Assembly (NCBI GenBank): GCA_937974845.1
Contig: CALJVC010000081.1
Span: 3,176 to 67,175, forward strand
DNA length: 64,000 nt
Source: an uncultured Pseudogracilibacillus sp.
Lineage (GTDB): Bacteria > Bacillota > Bacilli > Bacillales > Amphibacillaceae
Reading direction: 5' to 3'
The stretch's first letter is position 1. Every line of letters starts with the position of its first letter. The translations under genes and the position numbers were made by a program. The notes under the pieces are model-generated. The model was given only the letters and a program-made list of their open reading frames with translations. It had not been told where the DNA came from and made no database searches. Below, in pieces: positions 14,350 through 63,968 of this stretch.

Positions 14350-14498
14350 TTTTTTACCTCATCCCTCTAAAATGTATTGTACTTTCATTGTAAACATTAT
14401 AGACAAGTTTTTAAAGCGATATAGGCTGTGGACAAGGATGGGTAAATATGGCCCTTAAAGGAAGGTCAGGTCGAGAAAGACGGAGGTCTTTTTATGTA

Positions 14499-14998
14499 AA
14501 TATATAAGAGCCCAGCCACTGTATATAGGATTTTTCGCCAGTTACAGTCGAGGCCATTCTTGTAAATGGAAACTTCTCCTGTTTACATTGAGGGGCTTAC
14601 CTTGTAAACGAATCTTTTTTCTGTATATAGGGAGGCTTGCCTTGTAAATAGAAATTTCTCCTGTTTACATGAGGGGCTTGCCTTGTAAACGAAAATTCCC
14701 CCTGTTTACATGAGAACCTTGCCTTGTAAACGAACCTTTTTTCTGTATACAGGGGAGCCGGCCACTGTATACAGGATTATTTTTTTCTAAAACCTGTATA
14801 CAGTAAAGGCTTCTACTGTATACGGAATAAAATTTTTTCCAAACCTAGATACAGTAATCATGTTCACCGTATACAGAATTCCTTCTCCATATACAAGAGA
14901 CTGGCCTACCGTAAACAAAAATAAATCCCATATACAGTAGAGCATTCTCTCGTATACCGTCCTCCCTTTCGTATACAAAAGGCTTGTCCTTCTAGCTA
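14499..14998. repeat. Array B: 12 tandem about 41-bp palindromic units of the same family as array A
   Basis: Left half-sites start at about 14499, then 14539, 14580, 14622, 14662, 14703, 14744, 14795, 14846, 14888, 14929 and 14970. Right half-sites follow 20-22 bp later. The only ORF is a repeat-generated 63-aa frame. Confidence 0.9.
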
Positions 14999-39703: not shown

Positions 39704-41830
39704 TTAGGACGCAGACTTTTCTTCCTGCTCTTCATCCGCAAAGACGGATAGGGCTAAAATTTCTGCAACGTCCATGGTGCTAATATCCTGTTCTACTTCC
39801 TTCGCCTTCGTACCGTCGCTAATCATCGTTAAGCAGTATGGACAAGCAGTAGAAATCATGTTCGGATTAACTTCTAAAGCTTGTTCTGTACGGGCGACGT
39901 TGATGCGGTGTCCGACTGTTTCTTCAGACCACATGAGTCCTCCACCAGCACCACAGCACATGGCGTTTTCTTTCGTACGTACCATTTCTACGACTTCTAA
40001 GCCTGGGATAGACTCTAGAATCTCCCGTGGCGGATCGTAGACGTCGTTATAACGACCTAAGTAACAGGAGTCATGGTAAGTAATACGCTTATCAATACGA
40101 CCCTTCGGCTTTAAGCGCCCTTGACGTAATAAGTCAACGAGCATTTCCGTGTGGTGAACCACTTCTGCTTCAAAACCGAAATCAGGGTACTCGTTTTTGA
40201 AAATGTTGTAGGCGTGTGGGTCAATCGTGACGATCTTCTTCACACCATGCTTTTCAAATTCTTTAATGTTTTTCTCAGCGATTTCTTGGAAAAGGAACTC
40301 GTTACCAATACGACGGGCAGTATCCCCAGAGTTCATCTCCTTATTACCTAAAATCGCAAACTTCACACCAGCTTCGTTCATTAACTTAGCGAAGGCAATG
40401 GCAATTTTCTGGCTTTCGTTATCATAAGCACCCATTGAACTAACCCAGTATAAATATTCGAAGTCTTCGCCTTCTTTTTTGAGTTCTTTAACCGTCGGTA
40501 CGCGGACAGACTCGTCTAATTCGCGCCACTTAATACGGTCTTTACGGGATAAGCCCCATGGGTTTCCTTGACGTTCGATATTTTGAACAGCTCGTTGTTG
40601 CTCGACATCCATCTTACCTTCTGTCATAACGAGGTAACGACGCATATCGATAATGTGGCTTACGTGTTCGTTTACTACAGGGCACGCATCTTCACAGTTA
40701 CGGCAAGTAGTACAAGCCTGTAATTCCTCTTCAGAAATAACGTCTCCAATCAAGCTGACAGCGTCCATTTTTGCAACAGCTTCTTCCCGGTCCATTTCTG
40801 CTAAGGCATTCGGTCCTTGACCAGCGAAAGCATACTCCGGAACCCAAGGAGAACGTCCAGTAATCGCTGCTCCTTTATCGTTTAAATGATCGCGGAGCTT
40901 AATCATAATATCCATCGGCGATAATACTTTTCCTGTCGTCGCCGCAGGACAAACGCTCGTACAACGTCCACACTCAACACAGGCGTATAAATCGAGTAGT
41001 TGACGGCGATCGAAATCTTCTACTTTTCCAACTCCGAAAGAGAAGTCCTCTTCAGTCATCTCCTCGTCATCTTCGTCAAAGTCGAAGTTAAGAGGTTTTA
41101 ACTTTCCAGGCTCTGGGTTGGCTAAATAAACGTTTACTGGCGCTGCAATTAAGTGCGCGTGCTTGGATTGTGGGATATAGACTAAAAAAGCTAAAATCGT
41201 TAAAGTGTGAATCCACCATGCGATAAAGAACCATACCATCGCTGCTGTCGGTGATAAGAAACTGAAGACGGAAGCGATGGCGCTCGCTACCGGTTCAGAC
41301 CATACGGCTCCCTTACCTTGCCAGATTTGTAACATGGCGTTTCCAAAGAGAACCGATAACATTAACGTCCCAATAAAAATAAGTACTAAACCGGCATACC
41401 AGCCTCTCTTTAAACGGGCAAGCTTTTCTATGTATCGACGATAAAAAGCCCAAACGACAGCTACTAATACCATCAATGTAACGATCTCTTGGAAAAAGGT
41501 AAATGCTGGGTAGAAGGATCCAAAGGGTAAATGTTTGCCTGGCGCTAATCCTTTAATAAACATATCGATGGCACCAAACTGTACGAGAATAAATCCATAG
41601 AACATCATAACGTGGATGATTCCAGATTTTTTATCCTTCAATAACTTCTTCTGTCCGAAGACCATTACAATGACGTCTCGCACTCCATCTTTAACCGCTT
41701 TATCAAATTCGCTCTTTTTACCTAACTTCATATAAGCGACTCGGGTTGCCACTGCTTTAGCAAAGAGATAAATACCTAAAGCAGTAACCGCAAGAAAAGC
41801 GATTAAATTAATGATTAAAAAAGTGTTCAT
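39704..41830 (-). CDS. ywjF: membrane-anchored (Fe-S)-binding oxidoreductase with two 4Fe-4S motifs and CCG domains (YwjF-like)
   Basis: 708 aa. N-terminal multi-TM region, CVECGRCTSVCP and CTTCRNCEDACP ferredoxin motifs, and C-terminal cysteine-rich CCG repeats. Confidence 0.88.
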   Translation of the reverse strand: MNTFLIINLIAFLAVTALGIYLFAKAVATRVAYMKLGKKSEFDKAVKDGVRDVIVMVFGQKKLLKDKKSGIIHVMMFYGFILVQFGAIDMFIKGLAPGKHLPFGSFYPAFTFFQEIVTLMVLVAVVWAFYRRYIEKLARLKRGWYAGLVLIFIGTLMLSVLFGNAMLQIWQGKGAVWSEPVASAIASVFSFLSPTAAMVWFFIAWWIHTLTILAFLVYIPQSKHAHLIAAPVNVYLANPEPGKLKPLNFDFDEDDEEMTEEDFSFGVGKVEDFDRRQLLDLYACVECGRCTSVCPAATTGKVLSPMDIMIKLRDHLNDKGAAITGRSPWVPEYAFAGQGPNALAEMDREEAVAKMDAVSLIGDVISEEELQACTTCRNCEDACPVVNEHVSHIIDMRRYLVMTEGKMDVEQQRAVQNIERQGNPWGLSRKDRIKWRELDESVRVPTVKELKKEGEDFEYLYWVSSMGAYDNESQKIAIAFAKLMNEAGVKFAILGNKEMNSGDTARRIGNEFLFQEIAEKNIKEFEKHGVKKIVTIDPHAYNIFKNEYPDFGFEAEVVHHTEMLVDLLRQGRLKPKGRIDKRITYHDSCYLGRYNDVYDPPREILESIPGLEVVEMVRTKENAMCCGAGGGLMWSEETVGHRINVARTEQALEVNPNMISTACPYCLTMISDGTKAKEVEQDISTMDVAEILALSVFADEEQEEKSAS

Positions 41831-41910
41831 TGCTCTCCTCCTAAGATGATATTACTTTTAGTGTTGTCTCTTTCAGTCTATATCTTGGTTTAAATGGCTA
41901 TTCTATAAAA

Positions 41911-41926
41911 TGAATGAACATTCATT
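41911..41926. promoter_or_regulatory. candidate FadR(YsiA)-type operator upstream of ywjF
   Basis: Inverted repeat TGAATGAACATTCATT, 81-96 nt upstream of the ywjF start. It overlaps a plausible promoter spacer. It resembles the TGAATGA/TCATTCA-type boxes of the B. subtilis FadR regulon, which includes ywjF-acdA-rpoE. Confidence 0.5.
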
Positions 41927-42338
41927 TTCGACTTCTTTTCCTTCATAGATTCTACTAGATTTTTTTACCGTTTGCAAAGGAAAACGTTCTCTTTTTGTCG
42001 GAAAAAATCACTTTATATCCCTAGAACTCCTTCGCTATCCTAGGTTGAAAGATAAGGCCTGCCTCATTCCATATATAAGATAAGGACTAGTTTTGAAAGC
42101 GCTTGGACTTTCCTAGCGGGAAAACAAAGCTTCTCCGCTCGAAAACGAGGGGTTAAATTTCCTCTTACTCATATTCTTACATATTTACTTTTACTTTCCT
42201 AGCCAATTGTTTCTAAATAGATTCCTTTACACTGGCCAACACGTCATTCACTCTCTAGTAGATTAAGAAGGACAGTGCCTCAGGCCTCTATAGAAACCAA
42301 TCATTCTCCTTTCCTTTAACAAAATCTTTAGCTTTCCC

Positions 42339-42685
42339 TGTATCCAATCTCTAGACCTATTTACAGTAATTCGTTCCATTATAAATAGAAAATATTTTCG
42401 TTTACAAGAAAAGCATCTACTGTATATCCGCATAAATCCTATATACAGTAATCATGTTTACTGTATATAGAAGAAAACTTTTTTATATCCTGTATACAGT
42501 AAATGCCTCTACTGTAAATAGGTTTTTTAAAAAATCTATCCTGTATACAGTAAAATCGTCTACGGTATACAGGAATTATTCCTATTTACAAAAAAGCGTT
42601 ACACTGTATACAGAAAATATTTCTATATATAAGGAGCCAAGTCCATATATATAGAAAATTTTACCGTATACAAGATGCCTTTGCC
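42339..42685. repeat. Array C: 8 tandem about 41-bp palindromic units (plus one flanking half-site) of the same family as arrays A and B
   Basis: Left half-sites start at 42358, 42399, 42440, 42491, 42542, 42583, 42624 and 42665. Right half-sites follow 21-22 bp later. The only ORF is a repeat-generated 66-aa frame. Confidence 0.9.
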
Positions 42686-42701: not shown

Positions 42702-42734
42702 AAAAAAGTGTAGAAGGAGGAATTCCTTCTACAC
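42702..42734 (-). terminator. intrinsic terminator of argS (bidirectional shape)
   Basis: 11-bp stem GTGTAGAAGGA/TCCTTCTACAC flanked by A and T runs, 4 nt after the argS stop. Confidence 0.85.
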
Positions 42735-42737
42735 TTT

Positions 42738-44408
42738 TTACATTTTCTCCGGTGCAGAGACCCCGATAAGACGTAGACTATTTCCTAGGGTAATTTTTAC
42801 AGCCTTCATCAAGGCAATCCGGGCCTCTGTCAATGGTAGGTTCGCCTCATCGATAACCTTCTCCGCATTGTAAAAGCTGTGCAAGAAGCTGGCGAGGTCA
42901 AAAACATACTGGGTAATTCGATAAGGCGCCTCCCGCTCGGCCGCTTCCGCTACCACTTCTGGGAAGGAGGCGAGATGGCGTAGGAGGTCACGCTCCCGTT
43001 CAGTTGTCAGTAGGCTAGGATCGAAGGCTTCGCTAGTAGCCAATCCCTTGGCCTCTGCCTGCTTTAACATAGTACAAATTCGCGCATGGGCGTATTGAAC
43101 ATAGTACACCGGGTTTTCATTCGATTGCGAGCGGGCTAGATTCAGGTCAAAGTCTAATTGCGAATCGTTCGAACGCATGTTGAAAAAGTAACGCACCGCA
43201 TCGACACCTACATCTTCAACTAATTCCCGTAACGTAATCGCACTACCGGTCCGCTTGCTCATGCGTACAATTTCTCCGTCTTCTAAAACATTCACCATCT
43301 GAATGACGCTGACTGATAACTTTTCTTCTGGGTAGCCAAGGGCTTGGATCGCCGCAGAGATTCGCGGAATATAACCATGGTGGTCTGCACCCCAAACGTT
43401 AATAATTTTGTCAAAACCACGGGCTAACTTATTCTGGTGATAGGCAATATCCGGCGTTAAATAGGTGTAGGAGCCATCCTTCTTAATTAACACCCGATCC
43501 TTGTCATCGCCGAAAGCCGTCGACTTAAACCATGTCGCTCCGTCTTCTTCATAGACGTAGCCTCGTTCCTCTAGTTTCGCTAAAACTTGTTCAATCTGCC
43601 CGTCTTCATAAAGGGAAGATTCGGAAAACCATTGGTCAAATTCTACCCGGAAATCAGCTAAGATTTGTTTAATGCGCTCGAGCTGATAATTGAGGCCATA
43701 CTCACGAAAATAGGATAACCTCTCCGCTTCCCCTACTTCTAACCAACGGGAACCTTCCTTCTCTTTGATTTCCTCTGCAATAGCTTTAATATCTTCACCA
43801 TAATAGCCATCCTCAGGCATCGCCATCTCTTGGCCATGGGCTTCGTAATATCGAACTTCAATCGACTTGGCAAGTTGATCGATTTGGTTTCCAGCATCGT
43901 TAATATAATATTCCCGTTCCACATCATAACCAGAAAAGTCTAGGACATTGCTTAACACATCGCCAAAAACCGCTCCCCGAGCATGGCCTAAGTGGGGCTC
44001 TCCTGTCGGGTTCATGGACACGAACTCAACTTGGATTCGTTGACCCTTTCCACGATTCGTCCTTCCATAGTTCTCCTTTTCTTCTAGGATTGTTTCAACG
44101 ACGTCATTTAAATAGGCTTCATCCATAAAGAAATTAATAAAACCAGGTCCTGCAATATCTAGTTCTTTCACCTGGGCCTTGCTCGTATCAAGATGCTCGA
44201 CAATCTGCTCGGCAATTTGGCGCGGAGCCTGCCTAGCTACCCGGGCCAGTTGCATGGCAATGTTCGTTGCAAAATCTCCGTGGGCTTTTTCCCTTGGTTT
44301 TTCTAAAATAATTTCCGGTAACTCCGCTTCCGAACAAAGCTCCGCCTGCAAAATCGCCTGTTTAATCTCCGATTTTAATGTCTCTTCTATCGAACTTAAT
44401 AAGGTCAT
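42738..44408 (-). CDS. argS: arginine--tRNA ligase
   Basis: 556 aa class I synthetase with HIGH-type motif ([13 protein letters not shown]) and MSKRTG (KMSKS-like). Confidence 0.97.
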
Positions 44409-47100: not shown

Positions 47101-47144
47101 CACAAAAAAACCTGTATACACAAGGTGTAACAGGTTTTTTTGTG
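47101..47144 (+). terminator. long palindromic bidirectional terminator containing one CCTGTATACA core
   Basis: CACAAAAAAACCTGTATACAC-AAG-GTGTAACAGGTTTTTTTGTG, starting 3 nt after the PBP stop. Confidence 0.8.
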
Positions 47145-57906: not shown

Positions 57907-58126
57907 CTTTACCCCGCACTTTTACCATCCAACGAAAGGTATAAAAGTCATTTTATAATTGTATCGTTGAATTGTAAAGTTAAAAAAGGAAATTTTTTAT
58001 TTTATTATTCCACCTTAGAAATATCTTACAAACAGTCTGAAAAAGCATCCTACTTCCGGGAAAGAAAAATTTCCGGAAATGAGCTTTCTCCTTCTAGCAA
58101 GAAGGCGCTCACTCCGGAAAAGCTTC

Positions 58127-59365
58127 CTATTTAAATTCTCCGGCCCAGGTTCCATCTCGGAAAATCGGTTCCCGAGTTCCATCCGCTAAGACACCGTCAA
58201 TCGTTAAGGCTTCGGAGCCAATCATAAAGTCAACATGGACCATACTATCGTTAATTCCCTTTTCATCGAGGGCTTGTTCGTCCATTTTTTCGCCACCTTC
58301 CACACTTGTAGGATAGGCCTTCCCTAGGGCTAAGTGGCAGGAGGCATTCTCATCGAATAAGGTGTTATAAAAAATAACACCCGACTGGGAAATCGGAGAC
58401 TCATGGGGAACGAGGGCTACCTCTCCTAAACGGCGGGCCCCTTCATCCGTTTCAAGTAAATGTTTTAGGACGTCCTCCCCTTCCTCCGCAGAAAAATCAA
58501 CGACCTTCCCCTCCTCAAAGGTTAATGTAAAGCCGTCAATAACACTTCCGCCGTAATGGAGTGGTTTCGTACTCGATACTGTACCATTCACCTTATATTT
58601 ATCCGGTGCCGTATACACTTCTTCAGTAGGCATATTCGGGTTAAAGACGATTCCTTTTTGCGAAATAGCCACCCCGCCCTGCCAGAGATGTCCTTCTGGT
58701 AAGCCTACTTCTAAGTCGGTACCTGGAGCTTTAAAATGTAACTTTTTATACTGTTTAGCATTCAACTTCGTCTGCATCGCTTCTAACTTTTTATTATGTT
58801 GATCCCAAGCAGACAATGGGTCGTCCTCTGTTAAACGGACAGTCTTTTTAATTTCTTCCCATAATAAGGCTACCGCCTTCTCTTCGGTCTCCTGCGGAAA
58901 AACCTTCTTCGCCCATCCTTTTGTCGGAAGGGAAACGACCGTCCACGGTACTTCATCGTTCATTAGATAAGCCCGGTACTTCGTCAAGGCTTGTCCTGTC
59001 GCCTTCGCCTCCTTAGCTACTCGGCTTGGGTCTATATCCTTTAATAAATCAGGATTGCTTGCATAAATAGAGATAAAGGCAGAGCCCTTTTCAGCAAATT
59101 CCTCGTATTTATCTACTTCCCACTGTGGTACATCTTCTAACACCTCATCCGGTGCGTACGTAAACTTTAAAAGTGACAGTTCCTCATCTTTCCATTGGAC
59201 GTGAACCTTGCTTGCGCCTGCTTCATAGGCGGTTTTAGCAAGAATTCGCACAAAGCTAGCGACCTCGACCGGTGCTGTAATAAAAACGGGCTGATTCTTT
59301 TGGACATTGACCCCTTTTTTAACAATTAAGTTCGCATATTTTTCTAGCACTTCGCGTTCGAACAT
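58127..59365 (-). CDS. ampS: aminopeptidase, M29 family (AmpS/PepS-like)
   Basis: 412 aa with the typical M29 N-terminus (LEKYANLIVKKGVNVQKNQ) and C-terminal HVDFMIGS. Confidence 0.9.
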   Translation of the reverse strand: MFEREVLEKYANLIVKKGVNVQKNQPVFITAPVEVASFVRILAKTAYEAGASKVHVQWKDEELSLLKFTYAPDEVLEDVPQWEVDKYEEFAEKGSAFISIYASNPDLLKDIDPSRVAKEAKATGQALTKYRAYLMNDEVPWTVVSLPTKGWAKKVFPQETEEKAVALLWEEIKKTVRLTEDDPLSAWDQHNKKLEAMQTKLNAKQYKKLHFKAPGTDLEVGLPEGHLWQGGVAISQKGIVFNPNMPTEEVYTAPDKYKVNGTVSSTKPLHYGGSVIDGFTLTFEEGKVVDFSAEEGEDVLKHLLETDEGARRLGEVALVPHESPISQSGVIFYNTLFDENASCHLALGKAYPTSVEGGEKMDEQALDEKGINDSMVHVDFMIGSEALTIDGVLADGTREPIFRDGTWAGEFK

Positions 59366-62076: not shown

Positions 62077-62251
62077 CTCTTATCAAGACGGATGGAGGGA
62101 ATGGGCCCAATGAAGTCCAGCAACCTGAAAGCATACGTCCATGCTTTTTCCGGTGCTAAATCCTACAGGTAGACTACCTGGAAGATAAGAGGAGGAATGA
62201 ATCGAGACGATATCAAACCTTCTTCTATCTTTTTTAGAAGAAGGTTTTTTT
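62077..62251 (+). promoter_or_regulatory. SAM-I (S-box) riboswitch with terminator
   Basis: CTCTTATCAAGA...GGAGGGA...GGCCC.ATGAAG...CAGCAACC...GGTGCTAAATCC...GAAGATAAGAG, followed by the terminator AACCTTCTTCT/AGAAGAAGGTT and a T run. Confidence 0.9.
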
Positions 62252-62339: not shown

Positions 62340-63968
62340 ATGGTTAATTTTCAGTTTCAAAAGGACGATACGATCTTAGTTCATGGAGGGCAGGAACCCG
62401 ATCCGGTAACTGGCTCACGGGCGGTACCGATTCATCAAACGACATCCTACGTTTTCCGAGATACAGACCATGCCCGTAACCTATTCGCCTTAACAGAGTC
62501 AGGAAACATTTATACCCGGATCATGAACCCGACGACCGACACCCTTGAACAGCGGGTTGCCTTATTAGAGGACGGTACAGCTGCCGTCGCCGTTTCTTCC
62601 GGAATGGCAGCTATTACGTACGCCATTTTAAACGTAGCCGGTGCCGGCGACGAAATCGTTACAGATAGTAATCTTTACGGTGGAACGTATAACTTATTTG
62701 TACATACCTTGCCTCGCTTCGGCATTAAGGTAAAGTTCGTCGATGGATCTAATCCCGAAAATTTCCGCACGGCCATTACCGATAAGACGAAGGCCATTTT
62801 TGGCGAGACGATTACGAACCCAAGCTTACATGTTTTTGATATTGAAAAAGTCGCTGCAATCGCCCATGAACACAATATCCCTTTAATTATCGACAACACC
62901 TTCGCGCCCTACTTTGCTAAACCTTTACAATGGGGAGCCGACGTCGTCGTCCATTCAGCTACGAAGTGGATCGGTGGACACGGTACGAGCATCGGTGGTG
63001 TCGTCGTCGACGGTGGACGCTTTAACTGGGATAATCCGAAGTTTCCAGGCTTTACAGAGCCAGACGAAAGCTATGGCGGGGTACGCTATGCCGATTTAGG
63101 TCCTGTAGCTTTTGCCGTCAAATTACGGGTACAATTATTACGAGATACCGGTGCAGCCCTAAGCCCACACAATGCTTTTTTACTGCTCCAAGGCTTAGAA
63201 ACCTTGCACCTACGAATCACCCGGCATAACGATAATGCCATTGAAGTAGCTAACTACTTAAATAATCATCCCGCCGTCGCCTGGGTAAACTTCCCTGGCT
63301 TAAAAGACCATCCATCCCACGAGCTCGCCCATAAGTACTTTAGCGAGGGCTATGGTTCTATCGTTACCTTTGGTATCAAGGGGGGCTACGAAGCAGGGAA
63401 AAACTTAATCGACACAATCGATCTCTGGTCGCACGTCGCCAACGTCGGGGACGCTAAGTCTTTAATCATTCACCCGGCATCCACGACCCACCAACAGCTA
63501 AGCCCAGAAGATTTAGCTAAAAGCGGGGTCACAGAGGATCTAATCCGTCTCTCCGTAGGTATCGAAAGTCTTGACGACATTATCGGTACATTAGATGAAG
63601 CGATTGGGAAAGTAACAAAAGTATATACCCGAGTCCAGGAAGAAACGGATGCTACGGATTGGTTAACGACTTCTCCTTTCGACCGTTCCGATGGTATACG
63701 ACGGAAAACAATCGTCGTGAAAGGCGATGAAAAACTATACGAAGAAGTCCGTAGCCTGACGAAAAAAGGCTATCACGTCCTACGAATCGAAGACCATGAC
63801 AAAGAAATTGTCGACTGCTTATTAACTAATGAAGCAATTACCGACCCATTTATACAGGACGTTCAAGCCATCGAACCTAAAATTATTTGGACGACAGACC
63901 GTGTAGATACGACAGATGCTTCAATTGTGACGATTGCTGAGAAGGACTTTTTAGGTTACTTCATTTAA
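62340..63968 (+). CDS. metY: O-acetylhomoserine sulfhydrylase (aminocarboxypropyltransferase) with a C-terminal extension of about 115 aa
   Basis: Cys/Met PLP family with the PLP lysine in [11 protein letters not shown]. The canonical end ([25 protein letters not shown]) is followed by an extra domain of about 115 aa. Confidence 0.9.

Follow-up and report, generated by a model that had tools for sequence, protein, structure and literature searches.

The tandem array that lies immediately beyond the argS terminator (array C, positions 42339-42685 of the 64-kb stretch of DNA analysed here, which we call the window) raises a question of origin: is it a one-off product of slippage, or is it one locus of a dispersed element, and, if the latter, which part of its sequence is conserved and what might be reading it? 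The window comes from an uncultured member of the Bacillaceae with an ArgS protein at most 69% identical to that of any named species, Pseudogracilibacillus being the closest, and closer relatives by this measure are found in metagenomes only.

Array C consists of one isolated half-site, seven full units and one truncated unit, with 28.5% G+C. Left half-sites start at 42358, 42399, 42440, 42491, 42542, 42583, 42624 and 42665, giving steps of 41, 41, 51, 51, 41, 41 and 41 bp; this is how the earlier note on this DNA had described them, and its positions and steps agreed with our own reading of the sequence and with exact-word positions at every coordinate checked. The left boxes have the eight-base form TRTWWAYA, and right half-sites follow after about 22 bp (for example at 42380, 42462, 42513, 42605 and 42646), except in the last unit, which has none. 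Each unit is an imperfect dyad of 32-36 bp, CCTGTATACAGTA-N8-TACTGTATACAGG, after which comes an A/T linker of about 6 or about 16 nt. The isolated box, a degenerate TGTATCCA at 42339-42346, stands 19 bp before unit 1, which is the spacing observed between a right box and the next left box in 41-bp units. Units 1 (42356-42396, CCTATTTACAGTA-N8-CATTATAAATAG) and 2 (42397-42437) are 41 bp long; units 3 (42438-42488, CCTATATACAGTA-N8-TACTGTATATAG with a 16-nt A/T linker) and 4 (42489-42539, CCTGTATACAGTA-N8-TACTGTAAATAGG followed by T6A6) are 51 bp long; and units 5 (42540-42580), 6 (42581-42621) and 7 (42622-42662) return to 41 bp. Unit 5 is the closest to consensus, agreeing at 25 of 26 specified positions, unit 7 is degenerate with TATATATA boxes, and unit 8 (42663-42685) is truncated to its left box CCGTATACAAG. 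Tandem Repeats Finder reports only 42531-42572 and largely misses the array because its units are only 62-84% alike. Array C is identical in two other assemblies of the same species, so no copy-number polymorphism is seen there.

The array occupies part of the 907-bp spacer between argS (42738-44408, minus strand), which is upstream of it, and a gene for an Fe-S/CCG oxidoreductase downstream (39704-41830, minus strand). A gap of 17 bp separates the end of the array from the argS intrinsic terminator (42703-42739, minus strand), a strong hairpin with a 16-17 bp stem (-21 kcal/mol) and a T-run that overlaps the argS stop codon, while about 500 bp of non-repeat DNA separate the array from the oxidoreductase gene. 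Within the latter, some 340 bp of non-repeat, non-coding sequence (42000-42338) between the array and the downstream promoter region have no counterpart in the corresponding spacers of two relatives. Upstream of the oxidoreductase gene there is a palindrome, ATGAATG(N)TCATTCAT, conserved in three species (window 41908-41928, minus strand; L075:12030-12055; L076:11835-11860), which we take to resemble the FadR (YsiA) operator of B. subtilis, a fatty-acid beta-oxidation cluster following the gene. A SAM riboswitch (RF00162, 76.8 bits) is found elsewhere in the window, at 62077-62191 on the plus strand, upstream of an open reading frame at 62340-63968.

Two further arrays of the same family are present in the window. 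Array A (1949-2480) has about 13 units, with lengths beginning 41, 41, 41, 51, 51, 42, 41, 41, 42, 40 and 41 bp, and is enclosed by the terminators of two convergent genes; array B (14493-14980) has about 11-12 units and lies between the end of a methyl-accepting chemotaxis protein (MCP) gene and the start of rpiB. Together the three contribute about 33 units and roughly 2% of the window, all of it intergenic; most units are degenerate and 41 bp long, and each array has two 51-bp units at its middle. The box CTGTAWACAG, allowing one mismatch, occurs 48 times in the window against 4.57 expected, a count reached by no shuffle, and 45 of the 48 are inside the arrays, while the dyad TWTACAGTA-N8-TACTGTAWA, allowing two mismatches, has nine matches against 0.00 expected. 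A profile HMM built from units on other contigs, with no window sequence included, has all its window matches within arrays A, B and C (E-values down to 1e-9). Outside them there is only one good box, CTGTATACAC at 47112; it is part of the terminator hairpin of a penicillin-binding-protein gene (47105-47140) and is probably coincidental.

Similarity among the three loci by BLAST is confined to the arrays and ends at their borders; therefore their flanks have not been duplicated. The earlier note had proposed a dispersed element rather than a one-off slippage product, and had held that local duplication of one array together with its flanking sequence would speak against this; the flanks of A, B and C are unrelated, and the family occurs at other intergenic sites in relatives, so the proposal is borne out. 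A small mobile element flanked by target duplications was considered and rejected: the window contains arrays only, with no solo unit in its 64 kb, and array edges resemble decayed units.

Comparison with relatives shows that arrays have been gained or lost at particular sites. Two metagenome contigs, L075 and L076 (ArgS 83% and 76% identical to that of the window), share the gene order around argS, and their spacers between argS and the oxidoreductase gene, 475 bp and 263 bp respectively, have no array; on the first of them the family is represented at another place, by an array between the convergent genes pta and lplA. A two-unit pattern scan of JGI metagenomes returned at least 120 loci of two kinds, the true family and an unrelated 24-bp satellite. 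At least 17 of the family arrays are on metagenome contigs (34-41% G+C) from related uncultured bacteria close to Pseudogracilibacillus, at differing intergenic sites and with a 51-bp period. Several of these contigs share synteny with the window (74-82% DNA identity) and have their array at another intergenic site: one lies between thiolase and Fe-S genes (L146) and another in a spacer matching window 58008-58128 (L193), and the window has no array at either place. Nine of the 17 arrays touch a contig end, as is to be expected of a multi-copy repeat in short-read assemblies. Family members were absent from three 22-kb stretches (from Pseudogracilibacillus auburnensis, a 3-Mb metagenome-assembled genome and contig L203) and from 21.7 kb of L076; plasmid and phage collections gave no match, Rfam gave sub-threshold matches only (to miRNA-precursor and sRNA models) with no family at gathering score, and a literature search by motif and keywords gave nothing relevant to the repeat family. 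The arrays are thus dispersed, intergenic, non-coding and gained or lost between related species and, as far as we have seen, restricted to one uncultured Bacillaceae clade close to Pseudogracilibacillus.

Several searches returned sequences that we set apart from the family. A scan of genome collections with TATACAGTA-N8-TACTGTATA gave no arrays, only 23 isolated palindromes from unrelated taxa; the pattern is too narrow, because canonical units end in CTGTAAAC, and the canonical search pattern is CTGTATACAGN{11,13}CTGTAAAC. Viral matches to the narrow pattern, each a lone palindrome from a single phage group, have no relation to the family. The related viral contigs L003-L051 (IMG/VR, mostly from sample 3300045988, about 46-91 kb) share one palindrome, TATACAGTA-(TA-rich N8)-TACTGTATA, in a TATATA-rich stretch with conserved flanks and one copy per contig. 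Two further viral scans gave four matches each, about the number expected by chance, the best being between two co-oriented genes on a phage-like contig (L205). A single palindrome of 12-2-12 form, TATACAGTAATT-TG-AATTACTGTATA, stands about 70 bp upstream of a serine recombinase gene in Bacillus sp. RC (L071:6126-6151) and in an assembly labelled Sphingomonas sp. PsM26 (L066:3226-3251); it is not an array. Its flanks, as shown, are nearly identical in these two unrelated named organisms, differing by a few bases, which suggests a mobile element or contamination. The palindrome may be a crossover or operator site, and it offers a lead, though only a lead, towards a reader of recombinase type.

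Most multi-match metagenome loci belong to the 24-bp satellite CATACAGACTGTATATACAGCCAC, which is unrelated to the family, reaches 80 copies per contig and comes from few JGI samples (L084, L122, L130, L143, L185, L196 and about 30 more). The clade also has other tandem arrays with a period of 51-52 bp and unit sequences unrelated to those of array C (L076:14327-14743; L203:12290-12512; L120:2144-2622; L124:1381-1482; L161:9609-9760); by eye, those on L120, L124, L161 and L203 have a motif ...GTTGAARC.GATTTTGTG... in common, while that on L076 differs. Two of them occupy intergenic sites that in a sister species hold a TGTATACAG-type array: downstream of clpE, where L203 has the unrelated array and L120 the TGTATACAG type, and in the spacer between thiolase and Fe-S genes, where the two types are found on L076 and L146 respectively. 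This sharing of sites suggests hot-spots, or a common constraint on a period of about five helical turns.

What is conserved within the family is narrowly defined. The canonical unit is ATTCTGTATACAGYA-N6-TTTRCTGTAAACRRAAT-N4-T5-7-CAA, and the consensus over 17 arrays is ATTCTGTATACAG(Y)A-N6-TTT(R)CTGTAAAC(R)(R)AAT-N4-T5-7-CAA. It comprises two 10-bp boxes in inverted orientation, 22 bp apart from centre to centre (Box 1, CTGTATACAG; Box 2, CTGTAAACAG), with AATT on the outer side of each, a free loop of 6-8 bp between them and, after them, an A/T linker of about 6 nt in 41-bp units or about 16 nt with a T-run in 51-bp units. Among 117 distinct units from many loci and lineages, the 8+8 core box positions carry 1.4-2.0 bits and the loop 0.1-0.3 bits, and the linker holds little information beyond its T-run; correspondingly, the consensus units of the 17 arrays have nearly invariant boxes with almost random loops and linkers. 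Sequence-specific constraint thus acts on the boxes and spares the remainder of the unit.

Individual arrays are turned over at the same time. Units are 85-97% identical to the consensus of their own array, loops and linkers varying between arrays, and the recurring layout is a homogeneous core of 51-bp units with more degenerate edge units of 41 or 42 bp that have no T-run. At the pta-lplA locus of two relatives, where the flanks are 93-94% identical, the interior units have been replaced and their number differs, while two edge units remain alignable. Array interiors are homogenised, copy number changes and edges decay, as expected of slippage or unequal exchange. Homogeneity within arrays, decaying edges, a change of copy number at an orthologous locus and presence or absence between species would all be produced by purely neutral minisatellites, in which a founder unit is spread by rare ectopic recombination and amplified by slippage with neither a trans-acting factor nor a function; the degeneracy of the window arrays and the placing of arrays in DNA that tolerates insertions, between genes and often past a terminator, agree with this too. 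However, neutral repeats should diverge equally in box and loop, contrary to the difference in information content given above, and the same 41/51 architecture recurs across species, which leaves a neutral origin distinctly improbable in our estimation.

The constrained boxes could be recognised either as duplex DNA or as folded single strands, and it is the latter that provides the strongest competing explanation. It holds that the units are hairpins comparable to REP/BIME elements, with a stem of 12-16 bp and a fixed central mismatch, serving as substrates of a Y1 (RAYT-type) transposase, as stabilisers of mRNA 3' ends or as weak intrinsic terminators. As a single strand of DNA the array folds very well (-60.7 kcal/mol), far better than shuffled sequences (z = -12.9), although any palindrome would do so. 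As RNA, some single 51-bp units reach -12 to -15 kcal/mol and others -6 kcal/mol; canonical 51-bp units have a run of T5-7 beginning 0-4 nt past the stem, so that some resemble modest intrinsic terminators, and unit 4 of array C, read as plus-strand RNA, forms a hairpin of -12.8 kcal/mol with U6 immediately after it. Yet the pairing itself is not maintained. Of 117 distinct units, 102 have A·A or T·T at the middle of the stem, a mismatch that arises because Box 1 has TATAC and Box 2 TAAAC, and 14 have a Watson-Crick pair there, where 54 would be expected; compensatory pairs are not in excess at the other variable stem positions of these units. Most units have AATT at their outer ends and GTAG is on the loop side in just 21 of the 117, whereas the REP hallmark is a terminal GTAG or CGTC tetranucleotide on one side (PMC3733652). 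As pairing is not conserved and the REP end tag is absent, we favour duplex recognition by a putative dimeric protein. The lack of covariation does not fully counter the single-strand reading, because a conserved hairpin mismatch can itself be a recognition feature, as it is in IS200/IS605 and REP hairpins, Y1 transposases using hairpins with a fixed mismatch.

The position of arrays relative to genes bears on the same alternative, and on the earlier note's suggestion that all copies might lie next to intrinsic terminators. A terminator does adjoin window arrays A and C and the arrays on L120, where about 25 bp separate the clpE terminator from the start of the array, and L155, where the terminator is about 170 bp upstream; next to window array B and the arrays on L075, L191b and L193 none is detectable, so that the association holds for some copies and fails for others. 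The arrays on L075 and L191b begin 10-35 nt past a stop codon with no separate terminator between, which favours the hairpin reading, but arrays A and C lie beyond strong and genuine terminators. Similarly, unit orientation follows that of neighbouring genes in 11 cases against 4, but this trend is not significant and window arrays B and C are oriented against their neighbours. Weighing the folding and orientation data against these points, we think a role as single-stranded hairpins unlikely, while according it real weight.

Neighbouring genes give little indication of a dedicated partner. Eleven array-bearing contigs yield 54 open reading frames of an ordinary chromosomal kind, among them mreB, obg, pheA, clpE, mur ligases, ftsK/spoIIIE and cvfB, with a single IS256-type transposase and no partner gene that recurs; the window arrays are flanked by argS, the Fe-S oxidoreductase gene, rpiB, the MCP gene and cysK-like and ltaS-like genes. 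We found no Y1/RAYT transposase among the scanned window ORFs or, for the 54 neighbouring ORFs, among the 25 most frequent of their 108 families, which may count against the hairpin reading. The earlier note had also raised the possibility that copies cluster in the origin-proximal part of the chromosome. On other contigs arrays adjoin mreB, obg, pheA, clpE and cvfB, which in B. subtilis map all around the chromosome; this spread argues against such clustering. Two further ideas were also discarded: GTATAC is not avoided outside the arrays, as a restriction site might be (13 observed against 12.9 expected), and matches to sigma-70-like promoters are not enriched within them.

On the sequence evidence it is very improbable indeed that the arrays belong to a class already catalogued, be it a CRISPR array, a type III antitoxin (ToxI-like) repeat RNA, the iterons or centromere of an integrated plasmid, or a coding repeat of 17 residues. 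CRISPR arrays have repeats of 24-48 bp with unique spacers of similar length and usually accompany cas genes; here the variable parts are just 6-16 nt, the period is 41/51 bp and there are no cas genes. A ToxI-like RNA is rejected because no toxin gene is directly downstream, the neighbours being those just listed. The regular period recalls iterons and the sopC centromere, but no rep or par gene adjoins any array, the family shows no similarity to plasmids or phages, and Rfam has nothing above threshold. A coding origin draws on the equivalence of 51 bp with 17 codons and on the two or more frames that are open in most 51-bp consensus units; against it, both strands have open frames, units of 41 bp interrupt them, and neither a start codon nor a ribosome-binding site is present. 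In most arrays two to five of the six frames of the 51-bp consensus unit are open, on either strand, and because 51 bp is 17 codons, long spurious reading frames run through arrays (for instance L191:83-400, L155:7521-8003 and window 42454-42654), which gene callers may annotate as hypothetical repeat proteins.

Among described repeats, the closest in working are the clusters of bacterial interspersed mosaic elements, which similarly combine alternating palindromic units with linkers of fixed length (PMC2817692). REP/BIME sequences are described as high-copy intergenic palindromes, clustered in alternating orientation with few fixed linker lengths, often at gene 3' ends and amplified in tandem, and known BIMEs are protein-binding sites (PMC2817692, PMC3733652). 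The present family resembles them in having a short palindrome (a dyad of 32-36 bp, against a criterion of 20-40 bp), in high copy and outside genes. It differs in that its stems do not covary, its boxes are A/T-rich rather than G+C-rich, it occurs in arrays with no singletons in 64 kb, and a RAYT gene is absent from the ORFs and families scanned. The terminal tag is also missing and the host is a Firmicute, while GTAG repeats are reported from at least Proteobacteria, Cyanobacteria, Chloroflexi and the PVC group in a text that does not contain the word Firmicutes (PMC3733652).

In the architecture of the unit, the nearest analogue is sopC of the F plasmid, with 12 direct repeats of 43 bp, each containing a 16-bp inverted repeat bound by SopB (PMC3177203); here too units of about four helical turns run head to tail, each with a dyad site and otherwise variable sequence. 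Unlike sopC, which is a single plasmid locus beside sopAB, the family has many chromosomal loci and no par genes nearby, with two boxes per unit and two unit lengths. Looking for a sopC-like arrangement, we found no parA/parB or rep beside the arrays, which instead form three loci in 64 kb with housekeeping neighbours. There is a further likeness to BOX of Streptococcus pneumoniae, STAR of Staphylococcus aureus and MIRU of mycobacteria, interspersed intergenic repeats whose tandem internal module of about 40-53 bp varies in copy number between strains. Like these Gram-positive elements, the family is interspersed and intergenic with a tandem module, but it shows no sequence similarity to them; BOX is bounded by distinct A and C modules, the direct repeats of STAR are G+C-rich and 14 bp long, and MIRU units overlap the ends of open reading frames.

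Our best reading is that this is a new interspersed repeat family of the BIME/BOX/sopC kind, apparently undescribed. We give about an even chance to the full proposition that array C is one locus of a lineage-specific, non-coding, interspersed tandem-repeat family whose boxes are sites for a putative duplex-binding protein. Judging from the pattern of base conservation, the boxes are probably double-stranded sites, and would be read by a putative dimeric DNA-binding protein, each array offering a platform of 16-26 phased putative binding sites that would grow and shrink by slippage or unequal recombination. The reader could be a host protein of nucleoid, partition or insulator type, or alternatively a protein like a recombinase or transposase that propagates the arrays. 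The degeneracy of the window arrays, with units 62-84% alike, leans towards decaying selfish DNA in this particular genome rather than an indispensable host function, and conservation of the boxes could serve the propagation of the element and not the host.

The most far-reaching version of a protein-binding role, that arrays serve on the chromosome as docking platforms for a DNA-binding protein specific to the lineage, either as an analogue of a sopC/ParB-type centromere or as an insulator or nucleoid-organising system, strikes us as speculative and rather remote. On such a scheme, the geometry of a higher-order nucleoprotein filament would follow from the unit lengths of 41 and 51 bp (about four and five helical turns), and in this uncultured clade the chromosome would owe its structure to hundreds of platforms.

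Interspersed repeats are well studied in Proteobacteria, where REP/BIME sequences are accompanied by RAYT, and poorly understood in Firmicutes. The family is abundant, with three arrays in 64 kb and many contig ends falling within arrays, and it has practical consequences, in that arrays break metagenome assemblies of the clade and might provide strain-typing (VNTR) markers. It also has a clean signature of selection, in two conserved boxes with free loops, a fixed asymmetry and unit lengths near whole helical turns, and this makes it a tractable case for deciding between selfish DNA and host chromosome architecture. Were the arrays to prove platforms for a chromosome-organising protein, the interest of the family would be high.
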